A DNA stretch of 64,000 nt from Deltaproteobacteria bacterium (GCA_026388335.1 JAPLJZ010000079.1:2586-66585); one strand, 5' to 3'. Shown: positions 14,741 to 64,000, counted from the stretch's first letter. Numbers and translations: made by a program. The notes: generated by a model from the sequence alone, not told the origin.

Positions 14741-14778
14741 ATCTTCTCCGTCTCATTGCGTTTGTTGTTCTTTATCAT

Positions 14779-14794
14779 AGCAAGGGATATGCCA
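14779..14794 (-). promoter_or_regulatory. Sigma-54 promoter for fliK-flgD-flgE
   Basis: Reverse strand reads TGGCATATCCCTTGCT. It lies 39 nt upstream of the fliK ATG. Confidence 0.75.
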
Positions 14795-14886
14795 CGACTT
14801 AAAAGCATTTACTTACAACTACTTATGATTTTTTGGGAGGGTTTTTTTTGAGATAAAAGGGAAAATATTTCCTACTGTTGTCTTTT

Positions 14887-14933
14887 CCCTATTTGACATC
14901 CCCGCGTGCTGGAATCGGGGATGTCAAATAGGG
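14887..14933 (-). terminator. Perfect 18-bp stem hairpin directly after the ylxF/motE-like stop codon
   Basis: ccctatttgacatccccg, an 11-nt loop, then cggggatgtcaaataggg. No adjacent U-tract. It sits between the upstream operon and the fliK sigma-54 promoter. Confidence 0.5.
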
Positions 14934-14939
14934 TAGTCA

Positions 14940-15548: not shown

Positions 15549-15985
15549 CCCTCTGTCCTCCTGAATCGTAAGATGGCCGTTTCATCCGTCGTTATTCTTT
15601 CCTGCATGACCTCTGAAGCCTTGAATTCTTCCATATCTCTGTCTTTTAGGTTTTCCATCACTTTTCTTTCCTTCATCGCTTCCATCAGGGCGATCCTTCT
15701 TTCCTCAACTTCCTTCGTCACGCCCTCTATTACTTTCTTCTGTTTTTTTTCCTTTTCCGTACAAACATCGATATATGTAATCTGTAACTCAATGTCCCGT
15801 AAATGACGAATGAGGTGCTGCGAATCTCTCAGTTGATCTACAAGCAAAATCCGCTCCTTTTGTATGTCATTTAAAACTTTTATCTCTTCGTTTAACTGAT
15901 TTTTCTTCTCGGAAAACTCTGCGAGCTTTTGCTCCTCGATGATTTTTTTCGTATCCAGAACTGCCTGTAATTTGAAAACAAACAT
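15545..15985 (-). CDS. fliJ: Flagellar export chaperone/stalk protein FliJ
   Basis: 146-aa coiled coil with an N-terminus FKLQAVLDTKK typical of FliJ. Follows fliI. Confidence 0.8.
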   Translation of the reverse strand: MFVFKLQAVLDTKKIIEEQKLAEFSEKKNQLNEEIKVLNDIQKERILLVDQLRDSQHLIRHLRDIELQITYIDVCTEKEKKQKKVIEGVTKEVEERRIALMEAMKERKVMENLKDRDMEEFKASEVMQERITTDETAILRFRRTEG

Positions 15986-16046
15986 CGTAAGCCTATAATA
16001 ACGGCTGAAAATTGATTCGCTTGCGCCGAATCAATTGTTTTTTTGA

Positions 16047-17366
16047 TTATGAGTCACTAAAAAGACTTAATAATTGCTTCTTGGTATTCAAAAAATCTAC
16101 CTGCTCAGTTATCCCCTGTTGAAGGAAGGCATTGACCTTGGCAATCATTGCGATTGCGTAATCAATGTCAGGATTGCTTCCCTGAACGTAAGCCCCGATA
16201 TTGATCAGATCCTCCGCTTTTTTATATGTGGCAAGAATATTCTGAAGCTCATTGGCTTTTTTCTTCTGTTCCTCATCGACGACGTCAATCATGACCCTGC
16301 TGATGCTCTGCAGGATATCAATGGCCGGATAATGATTCTTGTTTGCCAATTCTCTGGTAAGGGAAATGTGCCCATCCAAAATAGACCTGGCTGCATCGGC
16401 TATCGGCTCATTGAAGTCGTCCCCTTCCACCAGAATCGTGTATAGTCCCGTAATACTACCTTTCCCGGCGTCAAGTCCCGATCTTTCCAATAGCTTCGGC
16501 AACAGACTGAAAACTGAAGGCGTATAGCCTTTTGTCGTAGGCGGTTCACCAATAGAGAGTCCAATTTCACGCTGGGCCATGGCAAATCTTGTCAAGGAAT
16601 CCAACATGAGCAGCACATCCTTTCCCTGATCACGGAAGTATTCGGAAATGGTAGTTGCGACATAAGCCGCCCTCATTCTAATAAGGGGATGACGATCAGA
16701 AGCCGCCACAACCACCACAGATCGTTTCAATCCCTCAAGCCCCAGGTTTTTTTCGAGAAATTCCCTTACTTCTCTCCCCCGCTCCCCGATCAGACCGATG
16801 ACATTTATATCTGCCTTCGTATTCCTGGCGATCATCCCCATGAGAACGCTTTTCCCCACTCCCGATCCCGAAAATATCCCCATTCTCTGACCCTTGCCGC
16901 ATGTCAGCACTCCATTGATGGCTTTTATCCCCAGATCCATCGGCGCGTCGATGCGACCGCGCTTCAAAGGATTTATCGGATCTGCATAAATGGGATACGC
17001 ATCATCATATTCAATGGCTCCCTTGTCGTCAATGGGATGCCCTAAACCATCGATCACTCGCCCAAGAAAGCCAGCTCCCACACCGACACTTGCCTGTTTT
17101 CCAAGGGAGATAATTTTGCAGCCTGGACCAAGACCTTGAAGGCTATCCAGGGGCATCAACAGAACCTTACCCTTTTTAAATCCCACTACCTCAGCAGTTA
17201 CGGGTCGTCCTTCTCCTGCCGGATAGATGGCGCAGAGCTCGCCCAACGACGCCACCGGACCATGGCCCTCCACAACGAGTCCAATGATTTCACTAACCTT
17301 TCCGTGAACTCTGATGGGATTTAGTCTATCCAATACGCGATGAAATTTTTTAAGATCAACATTCAT
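16047..17366 (-). CDS. fliI: Flagellum-specific ATPase FliI
   Basis: 439 aa, F1/V1-like, with Walker A GSGVGKS and Walker B VLLMLDSLTR. Confidence 0.95.
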   Translation of the reverse strand: MNVDLKKFHRVLDRLNPIRVHGKVSEIIGLVVEGHGPVASLGELCAIYPAGEGRPVTAEVVGFKKGKVLLMPLDSLQGLGPGCKIISLGKQASVGVGAGFLGRVIDGLGHPIDDKGAIEYDDAYPIYADPINPLKRGRIDAPMDLGIKAINGVLTCGKGQRMGIFSGSGVGKSVLMGMIARNTKADINVIGLIGERGREVREFLEKNLGLEGLKRSVVVVAASDRHPLIRMRAAYVATTISEYFRDQGKDVLLMLDSLTRFAMAQREIGLSIGEPPTTKGYTPSVFSLLPKLLERSGLDAGKGSITGLYTILVEGDDFNEPIADAARSILDGHISLTRELANKNHYPAIDILQSISRVMIDVVDEEQKKKANELQNILATYKKAEDLINIGAYVQGSNPDIDYAIAMIAKVNAFLQQGITEQVDFLNTKKQLLSLFSDS

Positions 17367-17390
17367 AAGAAGGATGGATTGGCATTTTGA

Positions 17391-18077
17391 TCAGTTTATT
17401 GACGACAAAAGTTGGTTCTTGACCTCTGCAAACTGGCGATCAATCCTGGCATCTACCTCACCGAACTGCGTTTCAATGAGCGCCCCGCCCCTGATGATGC
17501 CCCCATCTTCTTCGAATACGATGTTTTTAATCCCATCAAAGCCTTGAAGAAAGTCTTCCTTCTTGTCCATCATATAATGAAAATCTTGTGGGTGAAGGCG
17601 AACTTTGATGTTTTCCCGGTCAAGAATATTTTTCATGGCTGCCTTAAGAATATTTTGAACTGTATCTTGATTGGATGTTACCTCTTGCTGAAGAATCTTT
17701 TCAGCAATCGAGACAGATAACATCAGAATATCCTTTTCCGCTTTTTCTAAAATGCTTTTTCTTAATGAGGCGACTTCTTTGAGCTGATTTTGCAGAGCTT
17801 CTATGCTCTTTATGGATTCCTTCCGCGCCTGTTCCTCTCCGGTCCTGATACCCTCGCTAATTCCCCGCTCATAGGAATCTTTTTCCGCACTTTTGACACG
17901 CTTTTCATGCTCGCTTTTCAGAAGATCTATTTCTGATTGTCTTGATTTTGAGGGCTGCTGCGAAGAATTATTTGCCGTTCCGGCAACTTTCTTATTAGAT
18001 ATTTCAGCGTCGTCATCATCAACACTGATCAGTTTCACATGCAATGCCTTGATGACTTTAGAGTTATACGTACTCAT
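17391..18077 (-). CDS. fliH: Flagellar export ATPase regulator FliH
   Basis: 228 aa with a FliH-like C-domain (RGGALIETQFGEVDARIDRQ). Sits between fliG and fliI. Confidence 0.85.
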   Translation of the reverse strand: MSTYNSKVIKALHVKLISVDDDDAEISNKKVAGTANNSSQQPSKSRQSEIDLLKSEHEKRVKSAEKDSYERGISEGIRTGEEQARKESIKSIEALQNQLKEVASLRKSILEKAEKDILMLSVSIAEKILQQEVTSNQDTVQNILKAAMKNILDRENIKVRLHPQDFHYMMDKKEDFLQGFDGIKNIVFEEDGGIIRGGALIETQFGEVDARIDRQFAEVKNQLLSSIN

Positions 18078-50132: not shown

Positions 50133-50385
50133 AAATATCGGCGTGCCGATATGGAACATAATTCATCATTGCGCCGGGAAATGAATCTCCAAAATCCCTT
50201 TTACAGCTTTATAATAAAATGTGGCACAATATTTGTTTGAAATATACGAATAAATTCCTTGATTTTTTTCATGCAATCGGAATATTTCATTAGGACTATA
50301 ATATTAAGAAGGATAAAAGATTCATGTCCTCACAGTTCCTTTATTTTATTTAACATTTACTGGAAGTAGCGTTGGAGACAAAGGC

Positions 50386-50781
50386 ATGGGAAAAAGAATT
50401 CTGGTCGTAGACGACGAACCGTCAATGCTTGATTTCATGGAGACGGTACTTGAGGATGCCGGATATGAGGTATTGTTAGCCGACGGCGCGGACAGGGCGC
50501 TGGACATTTTTTCCCGTCAGGAGGTATCCCTCGTCTTTCTCGACCTACGGCTATTTGGGGTGAACGGCATGGAGCTGTGCCGTCAAATGCGTCAAAAGAA
50601 ACCTCTCACCATCCTGTATGCCATGACGGGCTGGTCCGGCTTATTCGATATCGAAGAATGCCGGGAAGCGGGCTTCGATGATTATTTTGCAAAACCCTTA
50701 AGAATCGAAGCGATCCTGAAGGCTGTCGAAGCGGCCTTCGAGAAAAGGGACCGCTGGCTGATGAAATTTAAACAAATCTGA
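50386..50781 (+). CDS. Stand-alone REC response regulator
   Basis: 131 aa with ILVVDDE, VFLDLRL and AKPL. Confidence 0.85.
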   Translation: MGKRILVVDDEPSMLDFMETVLEDAGYEVLLADGADRALDIFSRQEVSLVFLDLRLFGVNGMELCRQMRQKKPLTILYAMTGWSGLFDIEECREAGFDDYFAKPLRIEAILKAVEAAFEKRDRWLMKFKQI

Positions 50782-50798
50782 CAGGATAGACGAAAACA

Positions 50799-51650
50799 AT
50801 GGATGTAGAATATATCAATCCTTTTTTGAATGGAACGTTAGAAGTTCTAAAAACAATGGCCTCTTTTCAACCAGTTCCGGGGAAACCCTATGTAAAGAAA
50901 GACGATCTTGCCCACGGCGACGTATCGGGAATTATCGGCATCACCGGCGACGCTATCGGTTCGCTGGCGATCAGTTTCAGTGAAAGTTGCATCTGCAATG
51001 TTGTGGGGCGGATGCTAGGTGAAACTTATACTACCATAAATCACGATGTTCTGGACGCCGTCGGCGAGCTTACCAACATGATCTCCGGCGTCTCCCGCAC
51101 CCAACTGGAAAAAAAGGGCATGACCGTCTTTGCCGCTATTCCTTCGGTGGTCTTCGGGTCGAACCATACGATCACCCATATCTTGAAAAGCCCGAGCATC
51201 GTCATTCCCTTTACCTCACCAAGCGGTCCTTTCTTTGTGGATGTCTGCATCCGAACCGCAAATGAACCGGAAAAAAAATCCTCCTCATACGGGGTCGTCA
51301 ACAAACCTACCCTTGCCGGGGAAAATACTCCTCCTCCCGCTCCCGCCGTTGCCAATTCTGACAATCAGGAACCCCTAGACAGGCTGGAACTCTTGAAAAA
51401 GAAGCTTTCCGAACTACTTAAAGCCCGGACCTCCATGCAGAATGAGTTAGCGGAAAAACCCTTCATGGAAATGGCCCGGCGAAAACTATTCAAGAAAAAC
51501 ATCCCCCTTCTTGACGTCAGGATCAAACGCCTCAAGCTCGATATCACCACTACGGAAATGTTGCAGAAAATGACGAAAGATGAGTTGGAAAATCCAAAGA
51601 TTGTCGCGCACTATCAACATTATGACCCCAAAGAGACGAGGAATAAATGA
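50799..51650 (+). CDS. CheX-domain protein with a roughly 130-aa Pro-rich/coiled-coil C-terminal extension
   Basis: The N-terminal 150 aa are a paralogue of CheX at 28736..29203 (YINPFLNGTLEVLKTM...AVGELTNMISG...PFFVDVCI). The remainder is PPPAPAV followed by a coiled coil. Confidence 0.75.
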   Translation: MDVEYINPFLNGTLEVLKTMASFQPVPGKPYVKKDDLAHGDVSGIIGITGDAIGSLAISFSESCICNVVGRMLGETYTTINHDVLDAVGELTNMISGVSRTQLEKKGMTVFAAIPSVVFGSNHTITHILKSPSIVIPFTSPSGPFFVDVCIRTANEPEKKSSSYGVVNKPTLAGENTPPPAPAVANSDNQEPLDRLELLKKKLSELLKARTSMQNELAEKPFMEMARRKLFKKNIPLLDVRIKRLKLDITTTEMLQKMTKDELENPKIVAHYQHYDPKETRNK

Positions 51651-51994
51651 AGACGGCATGGTGGCAAATATCTGTGGGAATGTTTTTGGGGACGCTTTTG
51701 GGAATGCTTTCCTTTACCAATGTTCTTGCCCTCACCCCTGATCAGGTCCTGGCCCTGAGAAAGGCCGGGGTCAGCGACCGGACCATTCAATTGATGATTG
51801 AACAGGAACGGGAGGCGAAACAGAACCCCTACGACACCATGGGAACGAAAGAAATTACGGACAGCGACGGAAATCGGTCTGTAATTTACTCAACCGGCAA
51901 ATCCGACCGAACCTGGGAAGCATCTGAAAAGGAGAAGGTAGACAAGGCCTGGCAAATGCTCCAGAGTACCATCATTGACGGCAGACAGAAGTAA
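51647..51994 (+). CDS. Hypothetical small exported/membrane-anchored protein
   Basis: 115 aa with an N-terminal hydrophobic segment. Its start overlaps the upstream stop (ATGA). I recognise no motif. Confidence 0.5.
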   Translation: MKTAWWQISVGMFLGTLLGMLSFTNVLALTPDQVLALRKAGVSDRTIQLMIEQEREAKQNPYDTMGTKEITDSDGNRSVIYSTGKSDRTWEASEKEKVDKAWQMLQSTIIDGRQK

Positions 51995-52021
51995 ACGAAA
52001 AGCGATGCAGAAACTGGCATC

Positions 52022-52891
52022 ATGAGCGATCAAGCGCAGAGCCGCCATCAGATAGAGTCCTTTATCAATCGGATGCCGAGTCTGCCAACAACGGTTGCCA
52101 AGGTAATCGAGGTCTGTAACCAGCCCCAGACCTCCCCCAACGACCTCAACCGCCTGATCTCTCTGGACCCTGTCTTGACGGGAAAGGTACTCAAGCTCAT
52201 CAACTCGGCCTTCTTTACCCTCAGGGAACCGGTCACCTCCGTAACCAGGGCGATTATCATGCTGGGCCTCAATACTGTCAAAAATATGGCATTAAGCACG
52301 TCTATTGTCGGTATCTTCGGGGGAGACAGTAAGGAGGGGTGTTTTTCCATGAACGATTTCTGGGTTCATTCCCTGGCCGCCGGCGTCACGGCCAGGATGC
52401 TTGCTGCCAGTAAAGGTCTTCCTGCCGATACACGGGAAGAATACTTTGTCGGCGGCCTTCTTCACGATATCGGCAAGATTCCTATGATGCACTGCTTTCC
52501 GGAAGACTACCGTCATATCCTGAGGGAATCACAACAGCTTCGTCAACCGTTATACAGCGCGGAGAAAGAAACCCTCGGTTTCGATCACTGCCATGTCGGG
52601 CAAATTATCGCGGAGAAGTGGCGACTTTCCGTCAACCTCTCCTCCGCCCTCACATCACACCATCAAGGGGAGTTGCACTTCCTTGCCAGATTCAGCGATG
52701 TTATTGCTGCGGCAAATATCTGCGCAAAAAGTTTTTCCCTGGGCTCGGCGGGAGATGGTTTCGTTGAGGACCCGACGCCTCTTGTACTGAAGGAGACCGG
52801 ACCGGGCTGTCATGATTTATCCCAGTTCCAGTCGGATGTTGCCGAAGAACTTGAAAAAGCGAAGATTTTCCTCGACGTTTCGGGGGCATGA
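52022..52891 (+). CDS. HDOD-domain signalling protein
   Basis: 289 aa with the HDOD pattern (MPSLPTTVAKVIEVCNQPQTSPNDLNRLISLDPVLTGKVLKLINSAFF; LLHDIGKIPM). Confidence 0.85.
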   Translation: MSDQAQSRHQIESFINRMPSLPTTVAKVIEVCNQPQTSPNDLNRLISLDPVLTGKVLKLINSAFFTLREPVTSVTRAIIMLGLNTVKNMALSTSIVGIFGGDSKEGCFSMNDFWVHSLAAGVTARMLAASKGLPADTREEYFVGGLLHDIGKIPMMHCFPEDYRHILRESQQLRQPLYSAEKETLGFDHCHVGQIIAEKWRLSVNLSSALTSHHQGELHFLARFSDVIAAANICAKSFSLGSAGDGFVEDPTPLVLKETGPGCHDLSQFQSDVAEELEKAKIFLDVSGA

Positions 52892-52897
52892 AATACC

Positions 52898-53824
52898 ATG
52901 AAAATAACTTTTTGGGGAGTCAGAGGTTCCATTCCCTGCCCCGGCAGAAACACCTACCGGTATGGCGGCAATACAGCCTGCGTCGAGCTGTCTTTTAAAA
53001 ATATGAACAGATCCCTCATCATCGACGCCGGTTCGGGAATACGGGAACTCGGAAACCTCATAATGGCCCGCGATTTTCCAAAGGGACCATTAAATATAGA
53101 AATCTTTCTGACTCATACCCATTGGGACCATATCCTCGGGTTGCCTTTCTTTGCACCCCTGTATGTTCCCGGCGCCAAGGTGAAGATTTACGGTCCGGCC
53201 TCCTTCGAGGGAAATTCCTTGCAGGAAATCGTCGGCAGTCAGTTCAGCTACCATTATTTCCCCATCCGCCATGCCGAACTGGCAGCCCAAATAGATTATG
53301 TGGAATTGAAAGAGGGGTTTTGTGACCTTCACGACGGCATCATTCTAAAAACAAAGTTTCTAAACCATCCCGTAATGTGCCTTGGTTATCGTTTTGAATG
53401 CAGAGGGATGGTTTTCTGTACCCTCTACGATACGGAACCTTTCCGGAACGTATTTATTGACGATCCGGCAAACCCTGCGTATAATGAAGACATGCACCGC
53501 GAGGGAGAGCTCATTGCCTCTGAGGAAAATCGGCGCGTCGAGGAATTCATTTCCGGGGCCGATACGGTGGTTTATGATGGACAATATACCCTCAAGGAAT
53601 ATGAATCCAGCAAGATCGGCTGGGGACATACCCCCTGCGAATACGCCATTGCCGTCGCCGCACGCGCGGGAGTGAAGCGGCTTTGTCTTTTTCATCACGA
53701 TCCGTTGCGTACGGACGATGAACTTGATCAACTTTCGGAAGTTTTATGCCAGTCCCATATATCCGGAGGTATGGATGTGTCCTTTGCACGGGAAGGCAGA
53801 TCCATAAACCTTTCTTATGATTAA
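52898..53824 (+). CDS. MBL-fold metallo-hydrolase
   Basis: 308 aa with the HxHxDH motif (LTHTHWDHILG). Confidence 0.8.
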   Translation: MKITFWGVRGSIPCPGRNTYRYGGNTACVELSFKNMNRSLIIDAGSGIRELGNLIMARDFPKGPLNIEIFLTHTHWDHILGLPFFAPLYVPGAKVKIYGPASFEGNSLQEIVGSQFSYHYFPIRHAELAAQIDYVELKEGFCDLHDGIILKTKFLNHPVMCLGYRFECRGMVFCTLYDTEPFRNVFIDDPANPAYNEDMHREGELIASEENRRVEEFISGADTVVYDGQYTLKEYESSKIGWGHTPCEYAIAVAARAGVKRLCLFHHDPLRTDDELDQLSEVLCQSHISGGMDVSFAREGRSINLSYD

Positions 53825-54803
53825 AACAATCTCCGCAAAAAAATTAGAAGTGGGAATGTACATCAATCTACCCACGTCGTGGATGTCCCATTCCTTCATC
53901 AAGAACAAGTTTCTTATTACCTCCCGGAGTCAGATTGATAAAATCATTCAGAGCAGCCTAAAAGAAATAAAAATTGATACCTCATTGGGGAAAGATCTCA
54001 TTGATGAGGTCATTGCTGATGAACCATCGCCGAGTGTCCCGGAGACCGTTCAAAAGGTTGTCCCGGAAGGCCTGCGGGAAATGATTCGTGATCCAAAGCT
54101 GGCTTCGGATAAGAAGGCGCAGGCTGTTCAGCATTATTCACAGGACATGATGAAGAACCTTCTGGAATCTCCCACGGCTGAAAATATCGGTGCGGTAATG
54201 ACGACAGTCTCCGAGATTGTCGATCTTATTGTAACCGATGATGATACAAACCATTATCTGTTGAATATCACGTCCCACGATTTTGCCACCTACACCCATT
54301 CGGTAAATGTCGGCATCTTATCAATTTCCCTGGCCAAGGCTCTGTACCGGAAATCCGACAATCACGACATGCATGCCCTGGGATCGGGATTTTTTTTACA
54401 CGATCTTGGAAAGACTCGGATTGATCAGTCGATTATCAACAAGCCGGGAAAACTGACTGAGCAGGAATGGAACGAGATGCGGGGCCACCCTAATCACGGT
54501 TTTGAAATCCTGACTGAAACAGATAAGCTTAACAAAGAAAGTCGCATCATTGTCCTTCAGCACCACGAAAGGAATGACGGTTCCGGCTATCCTCTCGGCA
54601 TCAAGGGCGACGATATTCATCCTTACGGGCGCATCTGCTCCGTCGCCGACGTTTACGACGCCCTGACTTCCATTCGCCCCTATAAGCCGAAAATACCCCC
54701 CTTTGAGGCCCTCCGGATAATGCAGAAGGAAATGCTCCACCATTTCCATCGGGATGTCTTTGAACGATTCGTGCTGCTCCTCGCTGCGGCCGAAAAAACC
54801 TAA
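53817..54803 (+). CDS. HD-GYP domain protein (putative c-di-GMP phosphodiesterase)
   Basis: 328 aa with HSVNVG, FLHDLGKTRI and HHERNDGSGYPLG. Confidence 0.85.
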   Translation: MIKTISAKKLEVGMYINLPTSWMSHSFIKNKFLITSRSQIDKIIQSSLKEIKIDTSLGKDLIDEVIADEPSPSVPETVQKVVPEGLREMIRDPKLASDKKAQAVQHYSQDMMKNLLESPTAENIGAVMTTVSEIVDLIVTDDDTNHYLLNITSHDFATYTHSVNVGILSISLAKALYRKSDNHDMHALGSGFFLHDLGKTRIDQSIINKPGKLTEQEWNEMRGHPNHGFEILTETDKLNKESRIIVLQHHERNDGSGYPLGIKGDDIHPYGRICSVADVYDALTSIRPYKPKIPPFEALRIMQKEMLHHFHRDVFERFVLLLAAAEKT

Positions 54804-54816
54804 GAAAAAAGCAAGC

Positions 54817-55608
54817 CTATCTCCCCTTGAAGTTCGCCTGGCGGCGCTCGATGAGGGACATAACCCCTTCGGCGGCGTCTTCCGATTGCATCACTTTCAG
54901 GAGTTTCGGCATGATCTCCCGGACGCCGGCGGTGAAACCATCGTATGCCGCCGTCTTGGCCAAGGAAAGAGTCGCCTGGACGGCGAGGGGCGCCTGGGCG
55001 GCAATCTTTTCCGCGATTTTCAATGCCTGCTCAAGTTGCTTCCCCGGTTCCGTGATTTCCTGGACGAGGCCAAAGCGGTAAGCGTCTTCGACGTTGAACT
55101 CGTCTCCCGTCAGGAGATAACGCATGGCGTTTCCCCAGCCCGCCGTCTTGGCCATGCGGATCGTTGCTCCGCCGAACGGGAAGATGCCGCGCTTCACTTC
55201 CAACTGGGCAAAGCGTGTATCCGATGCGGCAACCACGATATCGGCAGCAAGGGAAAGTTCCGCTCCCAGTGTATAGCACCGACCCTGCACGGCCATGATC
55301 AGCGGCTTGGAAAGCATCCGGCCATGAACGGCAAAGGGATCGATCTCCCCTTCCTTAATGAAGGGTTCCCCTTTGGCGACATGGGGCGCCACATCCCCCA
55401 GGTCCAGACCGGCGGTAAAATGATTGCCTGCTGCGAAAACAACGGCACAGCGCAAATTTGCATCCTGATCATACTCGCCAAATGCTTTGGACAGATCGAG
55501 AAGCATATCCCAGGTAAAGGCGTTCATCTTGGAAGATCTGTGAACACCGATCAAAAATACGTGGCCACGTATTTCACGGCTGATGGTTCCTTCTTTGATT
55601 TCAGTCAT
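54817..55608 (-). CDS. Enoyl-CoA hydratase/isomerase (crotonase) family protein
   Basis: I chose the start at 55608 (MTEIKEGTISREIRGHVFLIG). It shows the crotonase pattern (FTAGLDL..., MAVQGRCYTLGAELSLAADIVVA). The longer track ORF upstream merely translates the tRNA fragment. Confidence 0.85.
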   Translation of the reverse strand: MTEIKEGTISREIRGHVFLIGVHRSSKMNAFTWDMLLDLSKAFGEYDQDANLRCAVVFAAGNHFTAGLDLGDVAPHVAKGEPFIKEGEIDPFAVHGRMLSKPLIMAVQGRCYTLGAELSLAADIVVAASDTRFAQLEVKRGIFPFGGATIRMAKTAGWGNAMRYLLTGDEFNVEDAYRFGLVQEITEPGKQLEQALKIAEKIAAQAPLAVQATLSLAKTAAYDGFTAGVREIMPKLLKVMQSEDAAEGVMSLIERRQANFKGR

Positions 55609-55643
55609 GTTTTGTGCTCCCTCTTTTTGGTTATAACAAAAAA

Positions 55644-55693
55644 TGGTCGGGGCGGCAGGATTTGAACCTGCGACATCCTGCTCCCAAAGCAAG
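55644..55693 (-). pseudogene. 3' fragment (anticodon arm to CCA) of tRNA-Pro(UGG), lacking the acceptor 5' strand and D-arm
   Basis: RNA-sense sequence is CTTGC-TTTGGGA-GCAGG-ATGTC-GCAGG-TTCAAAT-CCTGC-CGCCCCG-A-CCA. The anticodon loop carries UGG and the T-arm is perfect. The required 5' acceptor strand CGGGGCG and a foldable D-arm are absent upstream (ATTATTTTAGCGAATTAGGCGATACGT). Confidence 0.75.
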
Positions 55694-55739
55694 ACGTATC
55701 GCCTAATTCGCTAAAATAATCAATGATATTGCGATTCGT

Positions 55740-55823
55740 CTGTGCGCCGTGTGCCCTTATTTTACATCCTTTTACCCCAAAGGCGCACACGGAAAGCGCA
55801 CACGGTTTTGACGGAAAAACCGT
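55740..55823. repeat. Cluster of GCGCACACGG motifs plus a small hairpin next to the tRNA fragment
   Basis: Direct copies of gcgcacacgg are at 55783-55792 and 55796-55805. Inverted partial copies are ctgtgcgcc (55740-55748) and ccgtgtgc (55747-55754). A hairpin cggtttt/aaaaccg spans 55803-55822. Confidence 0.6.
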
Positions 55824-56174
55824 ACAGCAAATTGGAGGTGATTGCAACGAAAATCCCCCCTGCCCCGTACATGTAGTATAATTGGCAATACCTCGAGGAG
55901 CAATGCCTCAGTGCGACATTGCTCAAATCGCTGACGAACTTCTTCAAGGATTGGCCTCTCACTACCTGCGAATATCTGATCCATCGGTTATCCCCCTTCC
56001 CTTTTGATAACCAACGGCACCGCCGCCGCCAAAATATTTCGCGCTGGCTCACCGGAAGGACACGGATGTTACTGTTTTTCCCTTTACCTTATAACAATTT
56101 GAATCTATGATGCGTTCCAATAGAGAATAAACAATTTCAAGTGCAGATTGTAACCACAAGAAAACGAGGACGAC

Positions 56175-56519
56175 ATGGAGAAAGACCCTGTAAGGCGGAT
56201 AAATACAGACATTGATCATGCTGATCGCAAGACAGAGAAGGAGATTCTTGATCCTTTTCAGAGAGTGAATCCTTTCGTCTCATTTCGGTATTCCTCCCGG
56301 GAAATATCGTCTGTTGGCGGCAAAACGTATGTGAAAGCCAAAGAAAAGAGCTTTGTAGATGGCAAGTTCAAGTCGGAGGAGTTTGAGGGAGTGGCGCCGG
56401 GGAATCTTTATGGCAATATGGCCACAGAAATGCAGAAGATGTTTTTCGGGCAGATAGCGTCAGTGATAGGTATGTTTTCAGCATTTTTGCCAAGCGTGAA
56501 GAAGGATAAGAGAGATTGA
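56175..56519 (+). CDS. Hypothetical protein
   Basis: 114-aa ORF with a GAGGA-type RBS and a hydrophobic C-terminal segment (FFGQIASVIGMFSAFLP). I recognise no motif. Confidence 0.4.
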   Translation: MEKDPVRRINTDIDHADRKTEKEILDPFQRVNPFVSFRYSSREISSVGGKTYVKAKEKSFVDGKFKSEEFEGVAPGNLYGNMATEMQKMFFGQIASVIGMFSAFLPSVKKDKRD

Positions 56520-56693
56520 TTTTGAGGGGCGGAGGACTGAGCGGGAATGGGAGCTTGCCGGTGGCCGTATGTATGGATATGGGAACAAGGCGGTTGCTGA
56601 CAACAAATACAAGTCCTCACATAGATAAATTTGGCCAGCCAATAAATCCCATTGGAAAGCGCGCATACATCTGAAAGCCAATTTCTCTCTTTT

Positions 56694-56755
56694 GGAGTGG
56701 ATCCACTCCTTCCTTATAATCCCCGTTTGACATGCCATATTGGACGGTGTAGACT
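56694..56755 (+). promoter_or_regulatory. 16-bp perfect palindrome followed by a sigma-70-like promoter upstream of the Mrr-like gene
   Basis: GGAGTGGATCCACTCC is at 56694-56709. TTGACA (56727-32), a 17-nt spacer and TAGACT (56750-55) follow, about 95 nt upstream of the ATG. Confidence 0.35.
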
Positions 56756-56851
56756 CCTTCCCGAAGTCAGACACTAAACGGTCAATAGATCTCTCTCAAG
56801 GTTCCTTAGAAGTTCAATGTTTCTTCACGAATAACCGCACTGGAGGTGCCC

Positions 56852-58360
56852 ATGGCTAAGCCGTACGTCACTCGCACCTTAGGCCCGATCCATTTTGAGG
56901 ACCTTGATCCTCATAGGTTCGAGGACCTCATCCGTCAACTTGTCTATGACTTCAGGCAATGGCAATCAATTGAATCAACGGGACGAGGTGGTGCAGACGA
57001 TGGCTTTGATATTCGCGCTTACGAGGTACTGCCGGTTGCAGAACCTACAACAAACGACGAAGGTGAGCAGGAAGATGCTCCTCATCCAATGGAGGGTAAT
57101 CTATGGATGATTCAATGCAAGCGTGAAAGGGAACTTGGCCCAAAGAGAGTCGAGGCTATCATCAAAGATGCAATGAATCCCTATGCTCTACCTTACGGCT
57201 ATATCTTGGCGGCTCCAGCAAATTTCTCGAAAGCTGCGCACGATAAGTTTAGAGAGGAGCTTAGAAACCACGGCGTAATGGAGTTCTATTTGTGGGGCGC
57301 TGGTGAGCTTGAAGACATGCTTTACCAGCCAAGGAACGACCACATTCTATTTGCCTTTTTCGGCATTTCACTGATTAGTCGCAGGCGATCAAGAACAACC
57401 GAAATTCGTGCCACGGTCAACGCGAAGAACAAGCTCCTAAGGGCTTTAGGTGATAATCCACATCATCAGTCCGTGCTGGTGCGCGATCTGAAGGATATCA
57501 ACTATCCGTATGAGGACGACTGTGAGGACTTCGAAGAACACCCTCGATGGAAGCAATACTCGGCTGTTGCGTTCTATCCTCTTGGGCTTATCGTTTCCAT
57601 TGGGAGGTATTACGCATACATCGACAGAACGAAAGGCGAGTGGGATTTCACAAAGGTCGTGAACAACGTCAGGAACATCCATGGTCATCAAAGGCGCCGT
57701 GACGTTGAGAAAGAGGAACTAAGAAACGCCGTTCAGGGATTCTGGGAGCAGATCCCTCACGCCAAGCAAACCACATACGTGCGAGATGGGCTCATTAGGT
57801 TCGACTCAATTGCTTTCATCGACGACAAAGGCGATAGCGAATACAAATGCCCGCATTTGTTTGTTGACTTCCATATAAAACGTGGGCCATTCTCCGCCTT
57901 CTTCGAGTACCTTGAGATAAATGAGCACCATAGTGAATCTCTCAAGGGGTTGAAGCGCGCCAAAATTTTTCCGAAGACCTTCCCGAAACCGAGCTTTGGG
58001 ACAGTTCACAAAGAAAGGCTAATCGTACTTGACGATAGCACGCGCGCGACTCTTAAGCACAATAGGGGAGGAATTACACTCTACGACTCAGATAAGAAGT
58101 ATGCGTACTTAAAGCCTGCTGATGTCATCGGTGTTGAGAAGACAGAAGACAAGGATGGGAAGAAAACTCTCCTCAAGATAACCAATATCAGAGTGGCTAC
58201 AGGGAAGGAACTGCTGGACTCATGTAACGATGATCCGCCGCTAAGACGAGAGATCGAGAATCAATTAGGTCGAGAGCTGAAACTGGGGGAAGAGATCCAG
58301 GTTATAGAGGCACTGGCAATTTGCGACTGGCAAATAGAGCAAAACCGACCAGTAGTCTGA
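56852..58360 (+). CDS. Mrr-like PD-(D/E)xK restriction-endonuclease-domain protein with a roughly 370-aa uncharacterised C-terminal region
   Basis: I chose the ATG at 56852 (GGAGG RBS 5 nt upstream). The N-terminus follows the Mrr_cat pattern: FEDLDPHRFEDLIRQLVYDF...GRGGADDGFDIRAY...NLWMIQCKRER. I recognise nothing in the rest. Confidence 0.7.
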   Translation: MAKPYVTRTLGPIHFEDLDPHRFEDLIRQLVYDFRQWQSIESTGRGGADDGFDIRAYEVLPVAEPTTNDEGEQEDAPHPMEGNLWMIQCKRERELGPKRVEAIIKDAMNPYALPYGYILAAPANFSKAAHDKFREELRNHGVMEFYLWGAGELEDMLYQPRNDHILFAFFGISLISRRRSRTTEIRATVNAKNKLLRALGDNPHHQSVLVRDLKDINYPYEDDCEDFEEHPRWKQYSAVAFYPLGLIVSIGRYYAYIDRTKGEWDFTKVVNNVRNIHGHQRRRDVEKEELRNAVQGFWEQIPHAKQTTYVRDGLIRFDSIAFIDDKGDSEYKCPHLFVDFHIKRGPFSAFFEYLEINEHHSESLKGLKRAKIFPKTFPKPSFGTVHKERLIVLDDSTRATLKHNRGGITLYDSDKKYAYLKPADVIGVEKTEDKDGKKTLLKITNIRVATGKELLDSCNDDPPLRREIENQLGRELKLGEEIQVIEALAICDWQIEQNRPVV

Positions 58361-58766
58361 ACACTTTGGTAACCTGAAGCATCTTGTGGAGGTGCTCAGG
58401 GACAGTAAAACCGATTTTATTAAGCTTGAGTTTTCACAGCGTGGTGGCGAAACAATGATTTTCCCACGTAAGGACATGGTCAACTCCACTGAAGAGATTT
58501 TGACGGACAACGGAATTCGCAGTCAGGGCTCGCCGGATACGCTGGCAGTATGGAACAGCAAGCCGTCTCAATAAGCTCTTCATATGAATAGACAAATGAT
58601 AAAGAGGGGAGTAACGAAAGGAATTACGGATTACCTGCTTGTAACGGCCTGATACTTTACATTTTATTTTGAAAAAAGACACCCATCCTTATGCTTTTAT
58701 AATGAATTAAGACCAGACTAATCTCAAAGCATGGCTTTCATCCAATAGAAAACACCAATTCATGCA

Positions 58767-61700
58767 TCACTTGATCTGATACACTCTTTCTTTAAAGCAC
58801 ACTAATCCTCTCGATGTTTCAGATCCAAAATTATCAAGAAATTCATTACTGACATTAATAACAAAAGTAAAATGCGTAGCATCCTCTCTTTTGCGAAGCG
58901 TGGGAAGATCCCAACCTGTAATTTCTATTTCTGAGTCATCGGTCTCAATTCTCCATATCCATCTGCCATGTCGTGGTAGATTTTTTAAGTCTTCGAGAGG
59001 GTCCCACAACCATATAATATTTTGATCATTCTCAGCATACCCAGGCCGCATTAACACCATCCAGTATTTTATTTTGTGATCTTTAGCCTTAGACACTTCT
59101 CCTTCAGACCAAAATATTTCACCTGCTTCAACATGTTTTACCTCAACATGGTATTTGCCGAAATTTGGATGCGATAGAACGATATCACTCTCGCGTTTTA
59201 AATTATCTCTTTCAGACTGACCACTAACAGACCAATCAGAGGTTGATAGCAGGTCAGATATTTTTATTCTCATCCAATTTTCCGCATTCTCTCCCTTTTC
59301 GCGTCTGCTTTGGTTTACTGAAGAACTGGTTGTGGTGGTTCCAGTTCTTTTCTTTTTTGGTTCAGATATGACTTCACTTATAGGCAATTCTTCTGTGATC
59401 TCATTTTGTGTATCATTTTCGTTATGATCTCCATTTTGTATAACCTCTTCCGACACTATTCGAGCATTATGTCTTTTATGGTCAGTAATTACAGCGTCTT
59501 TGAAATCACTTTCTAAGTCTTCAATCGCTGATTCAGGTACTCCAAGATCTCGGAGGCGTTGAAGGACTTCACTACTATCTCTTGCACGAAGAAGATTCTC
59601 AAATAGATTCGATAGATCTTTCCGGGTCTGCCTCTGCATGAGAGCTAATCCTAAGGCCTCCCATTTTCTCGCTCTATCCAGTAAAATTAGATCATTTTGT
59701 TTCCAATTTCTGACACTTGGAGCTGAGATTATTTGTTCTTCTTTGATAATTCTCAATCGCAAGTTATCAACAGCAAGTATGTTCAGGTTCTCTGGCTTTG
59801 GAAGATTGGCAAACCCGGAAACCACCTTTAAAGAATTGTAACGTTCACCATATCTCTGCCGAATGATACTAGTCGTATCCTGGTCTTCAGTATAATAATG
59901 AGGCTCCACATGCACTATTGTTGATAGCGGCTTTATTGTATACCAATCAGCAGCTTTCTTCCCTTGTTCCTGTTCCAAAACAAAGATATTAAATCTGCGT
60001 AACAGTTCGATCCGCGTATTAGGTTCGGCAAGATAAGGTTCGTCAAGCCAGTAGATATCAGAAGAATTGAAATCGATTTGTTCAATTTTGCTCCCCTGAT
60101 CCCATTTTAAGCAAGGAATATTAGAAATTTCATCAAACCATTCAGGCTTTTCATCGTGTATATCAAAGAAACTCCTATAAAGCATTCGAGTAGCTCGTAT
60201 TGCTACATCTTGGTCTATATTACATTGCAGTGCCTGGGGCAGCTGCTCGATCCATTCTTTCCAAATCATTTCACCAGGAAGAGGGAGTGTTTCCCTGACT
60301 CCAAGCATTTGTGTGAGGAAAGTTGCAAGATCGCGGCCCTCCTGTCCATCGGGGACTTTAATGTTTATTTCTGGAAGAAGCCCTCCTATACCTTTTCCGG
60401 GCATATATGCTTTATCTATCGGTACTCTTTGCTGATTATCCAAGATGCTTTGCTTACATGGCATCCATGGAAAATTCTCCACCTGCCAAGACGCGAATGA
60501 CTTTAGTTGGCCTGTGTTTCTTCCATCCCAACCGCCGCCTTTCTGGAATGAGTATTTCATCCTACTGTCCTTGGCTTCTTTTGCTATGGGTCTAATGGAT
60601 ATCAACCTTTCTATTGGGCTTTGAGGCAACGCCTCTGGGAAGAATTCGATTGCCCATTGTTCATGGATTTTGGTATCCCAATCAAACTCAGTTCTCCTAT
60701 TGAAACTTGCCGGATTTAAACTCTTTAGATAACTGCTCCAATCTTCTTCTTGAACCAATGATTGAAAGGGTGATTCTATCCTCCAAGATCCTTGATATCC
60801 GTCAATTTTCCAACCCACGTCATCTGAAGATAATTTACGGATTAATTTAACTTCCCACGATACTCCTGCATAACGTAGGATTTTTTTCCAATAATTACTT
60901 TCTTCGATATCGACGGGCCATTGGCTAGGTTCAATTAAAACGCCACGATCCTTGATACTTATGAAAAATATATCTATGGATTCAGAGGCACCCCAAGATT
61001 TGCCAGCATAACATTGCCAGGAGGGGATCCATCCCTTATCAGTCGGTAAAAATAAGGACTTCCCTAATCTTTCGCGACTGTTATCATTCCATATCGAAAC
61101 AGAATGACCATCATATTTAAGATCTTTTGTCCATAATTGATAAAAATTAAGCACCTCGGCGCCGTGTTGTTGCCACCAGTTAATTTCTTTTTTTGATTCT
61201 ATTGCCGGTATAAGAAAATGTTCTAGCAACTCATTTTTTTTATCATGCAAAAGTCTGCCATATATTATTTCATCCCATATTTTAGACGAACCATCATTTT
61301 CGTTCGATTCAATTTCATTTAAAAATTCTAAATATTCATTATGAAGTGCATAAAATTTTAGCCAATTTGGTAAGTTTAGGTTTGGTTTTATGCGTAACAA
61401 TGGGAACTTGTCTGATAAGCTTTGGGCACTGCCGTTAGCAGTCCACCAACAAGGTATTTCACGGCATATTTTCAAATAATATTCATGTTTTTTGTAAGGA
61501 AAATATTTGAAGAGTTCCTTAATAATTACAAAAAAAGCTTTAAGAGCATTCTGACATTCATCTTTATGCTCATTTTTGCAGTATTTTAGTAGACAAAGGT
61601 ACTGATCATTTTCAAGAGGCTCAGCACCTAAATACTCAAGGGCTTTTTTGAGATTGATATCGTTTTGAATATCTGAATCGATTAGGTTTTGCTCTTTAAT

Positions 61701-62975
61701 TTCATCAGGTTTTAAAACATTCCCTAAATTATATTCCCAGCGTCGTGCTTTAGATGGCGCAACTTTATTTCCACCAACGCAGGATACAAATTTCTTTTGT
61801 CGAAGCACTGATTCAATGCGTTTCCAAAGTGAGTAAGCAATTGTTTCTTTATTAGGCTGATCTTTAGGGAAAAAGGCTTCGATCGCTATTTTTGTCTGAA
61901 CTGAATCAACAATACGCCCCAGAAGCATTTCAAAATGATTGAGAATATCCTCATTACCCGGATCTCTAACATGCTTGCGACTTTGATCAAGATCAAAAGA
62001 TGCGTGGAAAAGAGCTCGGAAGGGCAGGTATTCTTCAGTTGGAAAAAAGGAATACAGAGGAAAAGAGTTTTCCCATGCTTGCACTTCATGTTTTGAGTTC
62101 ATTGGCAAACAACAAGCAACACTGTGACGTTTATCTATACCTTCGGACTTCCAAATATTTACCCAACGACGAAATCTATATGTATCTTGAACAATTTCAT
62201 TTTCAATGATTTTTACAAGGATATCATCATCCTTAATTTCAATATCGCTGCTTCTATCAATTCTCCATTTACGGCTTCGACCATCCTGCCATACAACCTC
62301 AACGATTTTAATGTACTGAGAAAGAAGAAGAAAAAATAAGCTAAGATTATTTAACGTGCTTTCAACTTTTTTCTGCGCAATTTCATCCTTATAAGGTAAT
62401 CTGATAATGGTTGGATATTCATCAACCAAATCTATTATATCTTCGATGTTTTGATTATCATGAGGAATTCGAAACGTAAGTGATGGGGGATCATTAATGC
62501 CTCTTTGATGCAACATTCTCTGGGTATCTGTAGCTGAAAAATAAAAATGAAATGGTTCTGAATATATCTCCGGCTTGTTTGTGATTTCTAGTACTGATTT
62601 GAAACCAAGGCCCTTTATTCCAATAAGGTCGGATGTTGAAGTATTAAGCGGGCACATTGCATCATCAGCATTTTGTAAGAGTTCCCAAAGGAAACGCCCC
62701 CCATAATCAAAACTGACTTCTCTTTCTTGGCTATAATCATCAAGCAATCTGTTTTTATCCCGAAGATATGTTTCTATTTCTTTTTCACGAATCCCTTTAG
62801 GGAGATCGGCATCTGTACATTTACTGTATAAATCAATTGGCTGAGACTTCTTTTTTGTCCCGCGGTAAGAGGCACAGATAGAGATTACCCCTAGCCTGCT
62901 AAATGGCTGCCCTGTGTTTGCGACCAAAAGTGAATCGTGAGTCATTTTTAGAAGGCATTTTCTTTCATTATCCAT
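58767..62975 (-). CDS. Giant NO VEIN-like protein: sacsin-type GHKL ATPase motifs at the N-terminus and a DUF3883-like PD-(D/E)xK module near the C-terminus
   Basis: 1402-aa uninterrupted ORF in AT-rich DNA. The N-box is FLWELLQNADDAM (aa 96-107) and the G2-like box is LIGIKGLGFKSVLEITNKPEIYS (aa 117-139). A G1-like LLVANTGQPFSRLGVISICASYRGTKKK sits at aa 16-43. The C-terminus reads ...RESDIVLSHPNFGKYHVEVKHVEAGEIFWSEGEVSKAKDHKIKYWMVLM. An AGGAAGG RBS and a TATAAT box lie upstream. Confidence 0.75.
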   Translation of the reverse strand: MDNERKCLLKMTHDSLLVANTGQPFSRLGVISICASYRGTKKKSQPIDLYSKCTDADLPKGIREKEIETYLRDKNRLLDDYSQEREVSFDYGGRFLWELLQNADDAMCPLNTSTSDLIGIKGLGFKSVLEITNKPEIYSEPFHFYFSATDTQRMLHQRGINDPPSLTFRIPHDNQNIEDIIDLVDEYPTIIRLPYKDEIAQKKVESTLNNLSLFFLLLSQYIKIVEVVWQDGRSRKWRIDRSSDIEIKDDDILVKIIENEIVQDTYRFRRWVNIWKSEGIDKRHSVACCLPMNSKHEVQAWENSFPLYSFFPTEEYLPFRALFHASFDLDQSRKHVRDPGNEDILNHFEMLLGRIVDSVQTKIAIEAFFPKDQPNKETIAYSLWKRIESVLRQKKFVSCVGGNKVAPSKARRWEYNLGNVLKPDEIKEQNLIDSDIQNDINLKKALEYLGAEPLENDQYLCLLKYCKNEHKDECQNALKAFFVIIKELFKYFPYKKHEYYLKICREIPCWWTANGSAQSLSDKFPLLRIKPNLNLPNWLKFYALHNEYLEFLNEIESNENDGSSKIWDEIIYGRLLHDKKNELLEHFLIPAIESKKEINWWQQHGAEVLNFYQLWTKDLKYDGHSVSIWNDNSRERLGKSLFLPTDKGWIPSWQCYAGKSWGASESIDIFFISIKDRGVLIEPSQWPVDIEESNYWKKILRYAGVSWEVKLIRKLSSDDVGWKIDGYQGSWRIESPFQSLVQEEDWSSYLKSLNPASFNRRTEFDWDTKIHEQWAIEFFPEALPQSPIERLISIRPIAKEAKDSRMKYSFQKGGGWDGRNTGQLKSFASWQVENFPWMPCKQSILDNQQRVPIDKAYMPGKGIGGLLPEINIKVPDGQEGRDLATFLTQMLGVRETLPLPGEMIWKEWIEQLPQALQCNIDQDVAIRATRMLYRSFFDIHDEKPEWFDEISNIPCLKWDQGSKIEQIDFNSSDIYWLDEPYLAEPNTRIELLRRFNIFVLEQEQGKKAADWYTIKPLSTIVHVEPHYYTEDQDTTSIIRQRYGERYNSLKVVSGFANLPKPENLNILAVDNLRLRIIKEEQIISAPSVRNWKQNDLILLDRARKWEALGLALMQRQTRKDLSNLFENLLRARDSSEVLQRLRDLGVPESAIEDLESDFKDAVITDHKRHNARIVSEEVIQNGDHNENDTQNEITEELPISEVISEPKKKRTGTTTTSSSVNQSRREKGENAENWMRIKISDLLSTSDWSVSGQSERDNLKRESDIVLSHPNFGKYHVEVKHVEAGEIFWSEGEVSKAKDHKIKYWMVLMRPGYAENDQNIIWLWDPLEDLKNLPRHGRWIWRIETDDSEIEITGWDLPTLRKREDATHFTFVINVSNEFLDNFGSETSRGLVCFKERVYQIK

Positions 62976-63290
62976 GATACATTACCTTCCTGATAAAATT
63001 AAGAATATTCAATTATACGCCTTCAAATGGTTTAGGATAAAGCATGTCTTAAACTAAGATACTGTTTCGGCACACATAATCCTTTCCTACCTTTTCGGCA
63101 AGCATCAAAGCTTGTTTATTCATCAGATCATGAGCCTTCCTTCCATTTTCAAAGACTATGAGTAGAGCAATATAATGAAAATGTCAAAGAGTCATCCCAA
63201 AGAACACCAGATCCAGCTCTCGCCGATAACCATCATCCATTAAAAACATCATGGCTTCTGGAAATATGATCTCCAAGAATGATGACATAT

Positions 63291-63332
63291 CAAGGTCGGA
63301 TATGTTTCATTAGATGATCATATCCGACCTTG
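63291..63332. repeat. Perfect 14-bp inverted repeat at the truncation point of the transposase remnant
   Basis: caaggtcggatatg, a 14-nt loop, then catatccgaccttg. Confidence 0.7.
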
Positions 63333-63489
63333 GTGTTGATCAACAGCGGCGTGATCTTTTTACTGGTGACTTTCTATACTTTGAAAGAAGCAAAGGTGCT
63401 GATTGAAAAATGGCGACTGGAATACAACACGTTCAGGCCACAGCTCATTGAATTAACGTCCTCCAGCGCCAGAAGCTTGGCTACATTGA
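63333..63489 (+). pseudogene. C-terminal remnant of a DDE (rve/integrase-core) transposase, frameshifted and carrying a premature stop
   Basis: It reads ...FYTLKEAKVLIEKWRLEYNTFRP in one frame and HSSLN*RPPAPEAWLH in the +1 frame. Together these reconstruct the canonical YNxxRPHSSLxYRPPAPE transposase tail. The catalytic core is absent. Confidence 0.7.
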
Positions 63490-63669
63490 AGGGCATAAAA
63501 TTACAGAATCCTAACTTTAAATGTGGTACAAGATTCGGGGCATGTTAAAAGAAAATTGAAAAGATCGTTTCTGTCAACGTGAATGAGACAATCTTATCGT
63601 TTTTGGTGCATCGCGTAGCTGACGGTTCAGCAGGGGGAACGGCACAGATAACGAAGAGAGGTTTTGAAC

Positions 63670-64000
63670 ATGGCCACAATGATCCCTTCCGACATCCTTA
63701 CCTTCACAACACCAGGCGAGCGGGCCTTTTACAGGTTTCTCCAAACCTGTGCCAAGCCGGATGATAGATACATTGCCTGGTATCAGCCGGATATAGCAGG
63801 TCATGAGCCTGATTTCATCCTCTACGCCCAAGACGCAGGATTGGTCATATTCGAGGTTAAGGACTGGTCCCTTGATCAGATCATTGATGCCGATCCCCAA
63901 TTCTTCACTCTGTATATCGAGGGAAAAGAAGAACGGCGCAAGAACCCCGTCCAGCAAATCCGGGACTATTTCGGGCGGGTCATGGACAAGATCAAAAAAG
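63670..64000 (+). CDS. NERD-domain (nuclease-related) protein, N-terminal 110 codons (runs off the window end)
   Basis: Hand translation gives MATMIPSDILTFTTPGERAFYRFLQTCAKPDDRYIAWYQPDIAGHEPDFILYAQDAGLVIFEVKDWSLDQI... This fits the NERD pattern GE..FY..L.......(Y).......G.EPDF.L....G..V.EVKDW. It is absent from the ORF track because no stop codon falls in the window. Confidence 0.65.
   Translation, partial: MATMIPSDILTFTTPGERAFYRFLQTCAKPDDRYIAWYQPDIAGHEPDFILYAQDAGLVIFEVKDWSLDQIIDADPQFFTLYIEGKEERRKNPVQQIRDYFGRVMDKIKK

Follow-up and report, generated by a model that had tools for sequence, protein, structure and literature searches.

We analyzed a stretch of 64,000 nucleotides (nt) from a Deltaproteobacteria bacterium (GCA_026388335.1, JAPLJZ010000079.1:2586-66585), referred to here as the window, whose last part, from position 55695 to the window end, carries three genes for proteins with PD-(D/E)xK-type nuclease domains. 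Starting from a tRNA-Pro gene fragment, they encode a Mrr-type nuclease, a giant protein with a GHKL ATPase head and a DUF3883 nuclease domain, and a NERD nuclease fused to a UvrD-type helicase, called below the Mrr-like, TmtA-like and NERD-UvrD proteins (Table 1; aa, amino acids). The segment is an ordinary bacterial composite defence island with three unrelated stand-alone nuclease genes, and the giant gene is, as judged from its sequence, a divergent form of Tiamat (TmtA), which is known to act against phages. A preliminary description of this DNA had proposed an accessory defence island at a tRNA hotspot, and that proposal is supported by a break of synteny at position 55694, matches to the TmtA and C3a187 profiles and defence genes beside the close homologues. 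Its statement that none of the three proteins matches a nameable defence system does not stand, since the Tiamat TmtA models recognise the giant protein, and the PADLOC candidate C3a187 recognises the NERD-UvrD protein.

Table 1. Features of the accessory island and its junction with the core genome (positions in the window).
Feature	Position	Strand	Remarks
Enoyl-CoA hydratase, last core gene	54817-55608	-	Pfam ECH_1, E=5.6e-39
tRNA-Pro(UGG) 3' fragment, 51 nt	55644-55694	-	Anticodon arm, T arm, 3' acceptor strand and CCA; attachment (att)-type junction of core and island
Leader of ~1.15 kb with no recognisable gene	55695-56851	.	114-aa open reading frame (ORF) at 56175-56519 (+) and smaller ORFs
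Mrr-type PD-(D/E)xK nuclease, 502 aa, stand-alone	56852-58360	+	Catalytic D53 and Q88-x-K90 at 57008-57121
Tiamat-like TmtA, 1402 aa, low-GC (guanine plus cytosine) cassette	58767-62975	-	GHKL head, long middle, C-terminal DUF3883/NOV_C nuclease
TmtA-like N box	62661-62684	-	
TmtA-like G2 box	62601-62624	-	
TmtA-like D1264/E1278-x-K1280	59136-59186	-	
Perfect 14-nt inverted repeat with 14-nt loop	63291-63332	.	CAAGGTCGGATATG / CATATCCGACCTTG; adjoins the decayed transposase on its upstream side
Decayed transposase, ~220 nt	63330-63548	+	Only the final ~50-70 codons of an integrase core (rve_3 type) are left; frameshifted
NERD nuclease and UvrD-type superfamily 1 (SF1) helicase, 613 aa	63670-64000	+	First 110 codons in the window; NERD D48 and E62-x-K64 at 63811-63861

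The tRNA element at the boundary lacks the 5' acceptor strand and is therefore a fragment. The Rfam tRNA model aligned with 55655-55713 over model positions 8-63 (23.2 bits for a gathering score of 29), and ARAGORN found no intact tRNA within the window. On the minus strand, the sequence corresponds to the 3' portion of tRNA-Pro(UGG), in agreement with the tRNA scar of the preliminary description, and position 55694, from which the island had been counted, is the true junction. On the core side, clustering at 90% identity groups the enoyl-CoA hydratase with proteins whose named sources are Syntrophus and Syntrophales metagenome-assembled genomes (MAGs). A contig from a related Syntrophales MAG (L041) shared 86% nt identity with the window over 50200-55694, ending exactly at 55694, and the 50 nt from the 3' end of the tRNA-Pro fragment were 100% identical in both. 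Past the junction, L041 (1-10000) carries genes for DUF6088, an HTH_17 excisionase-like protein, a tyrosine integrase and an IS110 transposase, followed by Usp, TetR and an RND efflux operon; the segment found beyond 55694 in the window is absent from L041 at the same site. The end of synteny at a shared tRNA-Pro fragment, together with the different cargo of L041, indicates that the site beside the enoyl-CoA hydratase gene is a real integration hotspot, a swap point with exchangeable cargo that differs in related genomes.

The TmtA-like protein matched seven TmtA models of PADLOC and no other family. The best of them, PDLC03964 (E=2.5e-68, 229 bits), aligned with residues 114-1203 (78% of the protein length) at profile positions 107-1181 of 1538. 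We found more than 500 full-length relatives of ~1400 aa, and 28 of 28 family members matched TmtA models and nothing else in PADLOC, with a best E in the clade of 3.5e-86. By their sequences, these ~1400-aa proteins are a distinct, divergent clade of the Tiamat family. Tiamat (TmtA), which acts against phages as a single gene, is credited to Millman et al. 2022, and reviews list it as a single-gene system with a PD-(D/E)xK fold and a mechanism that is unknown. In an alignment of 28 sequences, the residues E98, N102 and D105 of a sacsin-type N box and the G2 box G119-x-K-G-x-G-F were invariant, as were D1264 and E1278-x-K1280 near the C-terminus, which form the PD-(D/E)xK signature of DUF3883/NOV_C; the giant GHKL-ATPase/DUF3883 gene of the preliminary description was thus correctly recognized. 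Pfam NOV_C is recorded for many homologues and reached 16.7 bits in the giant protein (cutoff 22.1), in which Pfam SACS was also below its cutoff. In YenY4I, experiments have shown DUF3883 to be an endonuclease domain (PMC6765204).

An AlphaFold2 (AF2) model of residues 1-580 of the giant protein had a predicted local distance difference test (pLDDT) score of 85.8 and a predicted template modelling (pTM) score of 0.81. Searched with Foldseek, this model retrieved Hsp90, TRAP1, HtpG, MORC3 and the SR1 region of sacsin with a probability of ~0.99 and a template modelling (TM) score of ~0.27, a value as low as expected because the query is multi-domain. A long middle region (a ~900-residue body) joins the head to the nuclease domain. 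A sequence search of solved structures returned nothing for the protein, a profile search gave sacsin motif matches only, and there was no match in PHROGs. GHKL ATPases such as Hsp90, MORC and MutL dimerise upon ATP binding. The TmtA-like head would likewise dimerise when ATP binds, and the protein would recognise or clamp invading DNA in an ATP-gated manner and then cut it with its C-terminal DUF3883 nuclease.

Compared with known systems, the TmtA-like protein resembles Tiamat in being encoded by one large gene, in matching TmtA profiles only, in its sacsin/Hsp90-like GHKL head and C-terminal PD-(D/E)xK (DUF3883) domain, in its occurrence in defence islands and in having no obligatory partner. 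It differs in that its clade is divergent and has no seed-like member, in an apparent G1-like hairpin that precedes the N box, and in its origin from an anaerobic Syntrophales MAG. With sacsin, NO VEIN (NOV) and prokaryotic MORC-like GHKL ATPases it shares the N-box and G2 motifs, NOV_C and an Hsp90/MORC-like fold. Unlike sacsin and NOV, it is the product of a bacterial stand-alone island gene, and ~55 residues of the SACS profile between the N box and the G2 box are missing. Of note, the family has a conserved beta-hairpin plus helix, 'LLVANxGxPFSRLGVISICAS..TK' (residues 6-41; 62601-62975 on the minus strand of the window encodes residues 1-125). This segment resembles the G1-box segment of sacsin and MORC GHKL domains, yet it precedes the N-box helix (residues 95-106), and the distance from N box to G2 box is ~12 residues in the TmtA-like family compared with ~60 in sacsin. 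Judged from the order of the motifs and predicted secondary structure, the Bergerat fold may be permuted in sequence in this family. A search with the first 45 residues of the protein retrieved nothing.

The Mrr-like nuclease-domain gene of the preliminary description was also upheld: the protein scored above the cutoff of Pfam Mrr_cat, and D53 and Q88-C-K90, the PD-QxK motif of Mrr, were invariant in 24 of 24 aligned homologues. PADLOC v2 returned only a weak match, to the candidate model PDC-M58A (E=4.7e-4). The 944 homologues have a uniform length of ~500 aa, and some are named 'restriction endonuclease' at NCBI. No Pfam model matched the C-terminal domain (residues ~190-502, ~310 residues), and an exhaustive HMMER search with residues 190-502 found it in 360 clusters (50% identity), always equally placed within proteins of equal length, while shorter matches resembled fragments. 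Since it occurs in the same architecture only, this domain is private to the 502-aa family. AF2 modelled it at ~88 pLDDT, and Foldseek gave no match at E <= 0.001. The best partial fold matches were to ASCH/PUA-like beta-barrels (3s9x, 2kku and 1t62) at E >= 0.005, with target-normalised TM-scores of 0.34-0.41. An ASCH/PUA-like fold, should the model be right on this point, might fit a reader of modified bases, as in PUA-fused type IV enzymes. We found nothing for the Mrr-like protein in a sequence search of solved structures or in PHROGs, and no island ORF has a methyltransferase domain.

We consider the 502-aa protein a candidate type IV-like restriction nuclease. Its private C-terminal domain probably reads a feature of DNA, and the protein would cut the recognized DNA independently of a methyltransferase, as in type IV-like restriction. 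It shares with Mrr and PUA-fused type IV enzymes the PD-QxK core of Mrr_cat, the lack of a methyltransferase and the presence of an extra non-catalytic domain; it differs from them in that its ~310 C-terminal residues are private and have no Pfam model. Escherichia coli Mrr has a winged-helix N-terminus, unlike the 502-aa protein. PUA-Mrr-like fusions have been noted previously (PMC6765204).

For the third gene, the part inside the window matched Pfam NERD with 34.9 bits. A Logan contig (L001) that is 100% identical to the window and reaches 1.7 kb past its end contains the complete 613-aa gene, which runs ~1.5 kb beyond the window and in which UvrD domains were detected, so that the UvrD-like fusion expected in the preliminary description is there. 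The PADLOC model C3a187, 'NERD+UvrD', matched residues 10-605 at profile positions 12-547 of 559 (E=6.2e-81). C3a187 is a candidate model that is not known to be a validated system. Partial PADLOC matches were to a reverse transcriptase (RT)-associated NERD-helicase, GajB (helicase C-terminus only), AbiO and Nhi; the Nhi model scored 23.7 bits with no individually significant stretch, and we do not assign the protein to Nhi. The residues D48 and E62-x-K64, the Walker A motif GPSGSGK and the DEGQD motif were invariant in 17 homologues. With more than 1800 matches, the family abounds in Syntrophales and Thermodesulfobacteriota. No partner gene, such as a UG/Abi reverse transcriptase, was present upstream of the NERD-UvrD gene or in the 206 nt known downstream. 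The protein has the N-terminal NERD domain and SF1/UvrD helicase of other NERD-helicase defence proteins (C3a187, the UG34-RT NERD-helicase, Nhi and Gabija GajB), and it would translocate on, unwind and processively degrade foreign DNA in a manner analogous to Nhi. It differs from the UG34-associated NERD-helicase in that no reverse transcriptase was seen beside it, 206 nt being known downstream. Some UG34 reverse transcriptases are accompanied by NERD-helicase genes (PMC9226505).

Between the window and a related contig (L028), nt similarity of the NERD-UvrD gene was 91.5% and stopped at the gene ends, where the flanks became unrelated. Because the similarity is confined to the gene, NERD-UvrD moves as a single cassette. 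On L028/L029 (1-20400), the gene for a 94% aa-identical NERD-UvrD protein is flanked by those for a 2735-aa SACS-domain protein and a SNF2 helicase and, at its opposite end, by recC-recB-recD. The SACS-domain protein has only the G2 motif in common with the TmtA-like protein.

The four closest TmtA-like loci (56-72% identity) were all beside defence genes or NERD-UvrD. The neighbours were SspB, SspC and SspD in L007, BrxL, PglZ and PglX in L010, a DpdB/DndB-like gene in L011, and NERD-UvrD together with a methyltransferase/DUF1848 pair in L008. Two Mrr-like loci also had such neighbours: MmeI, NACHT, patatin and DncV-like (CBASS-like) genes in a Gallionellales bacterium (L033), and Abi_alpha, a type VI secretion system toxin and a prophage in Burkholderia cenocepacia (L035). 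At a third Mrr-like locus, a HepT/MNT pair was found amid housekeeping genes. The preliminary description had held that homologues residing mainly in housekeeping contexts would speak against a defence island; the close TmtA-like clade is in a defence context in all four loci, and it is the distant members that are syntenic or have housekeeping neighbours.

The composition of the island is uneven. The TmtA-like gene has a GC content of 38.1% (31.6% at third codon positions, GC3; minimum in 1-kb windows, 34.8%), and its flanks have 41.6% (58361-58766) and 39.5% (62976-63669), compared with 48.1 +/- 2.3% in the core (minimum 44.4%, 4.2-kb windows). Neither the Mrr-like gene (48.3%) nor the NERD-UvrD gene (51.4%) deviates from the core, and the leader has 46.1%. 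Since only the TmtA-like gene and its flanks deviate, the GC shift marks one foreign cassette and not the whole island. The sharp shift reported earlier is therefore real, although narrower and milder than described, as the value of 33% fits only the lowest local windows.

Next to the relation of the island to the core stands that of the three genes to one another. We searched for partnerships in ~100 related loci (20 other TmtA-like loci and 80 NERD-UvrD metagenome loci). A conserved pair of Mrr-like and TmtA genes was rejected, as tblastn detected the Mrr-like gene in none of the 20 other TmtA-like loci; the Mrr-like plus NOV-like pair suggested in the preliminary description can thus be set aside. 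NERD-UvrD was detected by tblastn in one of the 20 (L008), and none of the 80 NERD-UvrD loci contained a TmtA-like or Mrr-like gene, so that a NERD-UvrD/TmtA pair, with L008 as its sole supporting locus, was rejected as well. A general association of UvrD with TmtA was also discarded, because the four UvrD matches among 57 neighbours came from L008 and one syntenic PcrA-like pair (L009/L014). Unbiased clustering of the neighbours in 21 TmtA-like loci revealed genes shared only within related lineages (Binatia, Brocadia-like) and no cross-clade partner.

These counts bear directly on the idea that the three genes act together as a single multi-gene system, in which, for instance, NERD-UvrD or the Mrr-like nuclease would work with the GHKL/DUF3883 protein. 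Such cooperation could be read from L008, in which a NERD-UvrD homologue (53-55% identity) lies 1.5 kb upstream of the 56%-identical TmtA-like gene, from the NERD-UvrD homologues that adjoin other GHKL proteins in L028 (the 2735-aa SACS-domain protein) and L030 (two HATPase_c_3 proteins), and from a Pseudomonas hotspot co-dominated by Tiamat and type IV restriction-modification genes (PMC12629846). However, the arrangement is not kept: in the window the genes are convergent or divergent and the transposase relic separates the TmtA-like from the NERD-UvrD gene, whereas in L008 the latter two are co-directional with an unrelated 475-aa gene between them. As the three genes of the window also differ in GC content and orientation, and the partnership is not repeated elsewhere, we regard a cooperating system as very unlikely. 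With no conserved partnership in ~100 loci, the simplest reading is that the three genes are independent cassettes accumulated at one hotspot. Taken together, we think it likely that the sequence past the junction, up to the window end, belongs to a composite accessory island that occupies a tRNA-Pro attachment site of a Syntrophales genome and is made of at least three independently mobile single-gene defence cassettes.

A number of observations weigh against this reading. No integrase, second att copy or intact tRNA was found in the window or in L001; the source contig has 67,529 bp and ends soon after the window, before the far side of the island. Among the family assignments, the Mrr-like protein barely passes Mrr_cat (21.6 bits for a cutoff of 21), AF2 gives its nuclease domain low confidence, and the fold match of its C-terminal domain is weak. 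The TmtA match is of low density, with 229 bits spread over ~1075 positions, and the best E in the clade is only 3.5e-86, so that the Tiamat proteins tested by experiment belong to other branches. More distant TmtA-like genes (~31-38% identity) occur in syntenic or housekeeping contexts, those of Binatia (~31%) being syntenic, and the L009 and L014 loci have housekeeping neighbours. Finally, NERD-UvrD homologues often adjoin recBCD, sbcCD-like and other UvrD genes, a setting that a role in repair would also fit.

The last two points lead to the alternative that the genes serve host DNA repair, recombination or other housekeeping and merely lie beside a tRNA. The 94% aa-identical NERD-UvrD homologue directly upstream of recC-recB-recD is what this explanation predicts, as are the syntenic TmtA-like genes of Binatia. 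In the 80 NERD-UvrD metagenome loci, no neighbour was found in more than 15, and the commonest were UvrD-type helicases, SbcC/Metallophos-like pairs, SNF2 helicases and methylases. However, the NERD-UvrD flanks are unrelated between close relatives, the Mrr-like family is spread over distant phyla (members 53-92% identical across Gallionellales, Burkholderia, Phycisphaerae and others) in variable contexts, the TmtA cassette has foreign GC and lies in a segment that L041 lacks, and PADLOC matches were to defence models only. We therefore consider a housekeeping role unlikely.

The island could also be decaying cargo with genes that are no longer functional. A transposase relic is present, as the preliminary description had noted for the interval between the giant and NERD genes: the remnant scored 21.3 bits against Pfam rve_3, under the cutoff of 26.5, and its six-frame reading gave '...IEKWRLEYNTFRP' before the frame changes. 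No integrase is visible in the window, and assembly breakpoints suggest a heterogeneous population. In independent Logan assemblies of this strain, contigs were interrupted at 55672, within the tRNA fragment (5/5), at 56658, in the gene-free leader (2/2), and at 63410, in the transposase relic (5/5). These shared breakpoints suggest either repeated sequence at other places in the genome or a population that is polymorphic for single cassettes. Against decay, the three nuclease genes have intact frames of family-typical length (502, 1402 and 613 aa) and keep all their invariant catalytic residues, which makes this explanation highly improbable.

For the independent cassettes, innate defence against phage or plasmid DNA is the best-supported function of each one. 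We infer their protective phenotype and biochemical mechanisms from domain content, intact catalytic motifs, profile-based family membership, the island boundary and the defence-rich neighbourhoods of homologues; in each cassette, a PD-(D/E)xK nuclease would be coupled to its own distinct sensor or motor. More tentatively, the 502-aa family could represent a new nuclease that acts alone against phages or plasmids and has an undescribed sensor domain; separately, and equally tentatively, the permuted Bergerat ATP-binding fold may prove to be a trait of the TmtA-like clade. These results are a routine annotation and leave current understanding unchanged. They add an example of a defence island from Syntrophales, poorly studied syntrophic anaerobes of an under-sampled lineage, and identify two groups, a divergent Tiamat clade with many members and an uncharacterised Mrr-type family, that could each help to reveal how single-gene nuclease systems sense invaders.

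Several loci of homologues had features of their own. In L008 (1862-3704), the NERD and UvrD parts were called as two ORFs of 139 and 463 aa, pointing to either a frameshift or a gene that is split. Downstream in the same locus (14728-17555) are genes for a 595-aa protein with a methyltransferase domain and, after it, a DUF1848 protein, recalling the association of UG25 RT-methylase with DUF1848 described previously (PMC9226505). A two-gene module for a ~452-aa HATPase_c_3 protein and a 481-aa protein with no recorded Pfam match was found in L011 (2611-5418) and L030 (4724-7520), the copies being 55-60% identical. It adjoins the TmtA-like gene in L011 and NERD-UvrD in L030, had no PADLOC match and may likewise be a mobile cassette from this pool of islands. 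In four of four Binatia MAGs (L016, L017, L020 and L025), a gene for a ~341-aa protein was located 61-73 nt upstream of the TmtA-like gene in the same direction. Other neighbours were also shared among these MAGs, and the ~341-aa gene could reflect lineage synteny or be a clade-specific partner.

The smaller elements of the island gave few matches. The leader ORFs had none in Pfam, NCBIfam, PADLOC or PHROG, and the small ORFs in the island gaps had no family matches. Promoter and terminator scans were not above shuffled expectation, and a repeat search of the island detected no second att copy and no insertion sequence (IS) ends, with short matches only, likely due to chance. The plasmid collection yielded only 5 and 3 weak matches, all on non-mobilizable plasmids. 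On the core side, a 303-aa ORF (54754-55665, plus strand) lies antisense to the enoyl-CoA hydratase gene; its translation is of low complexity and implausible, and it is almost certainly a shadow ORF. The inverted repeat next to the transposase relic could be an IS end or a hairpin.

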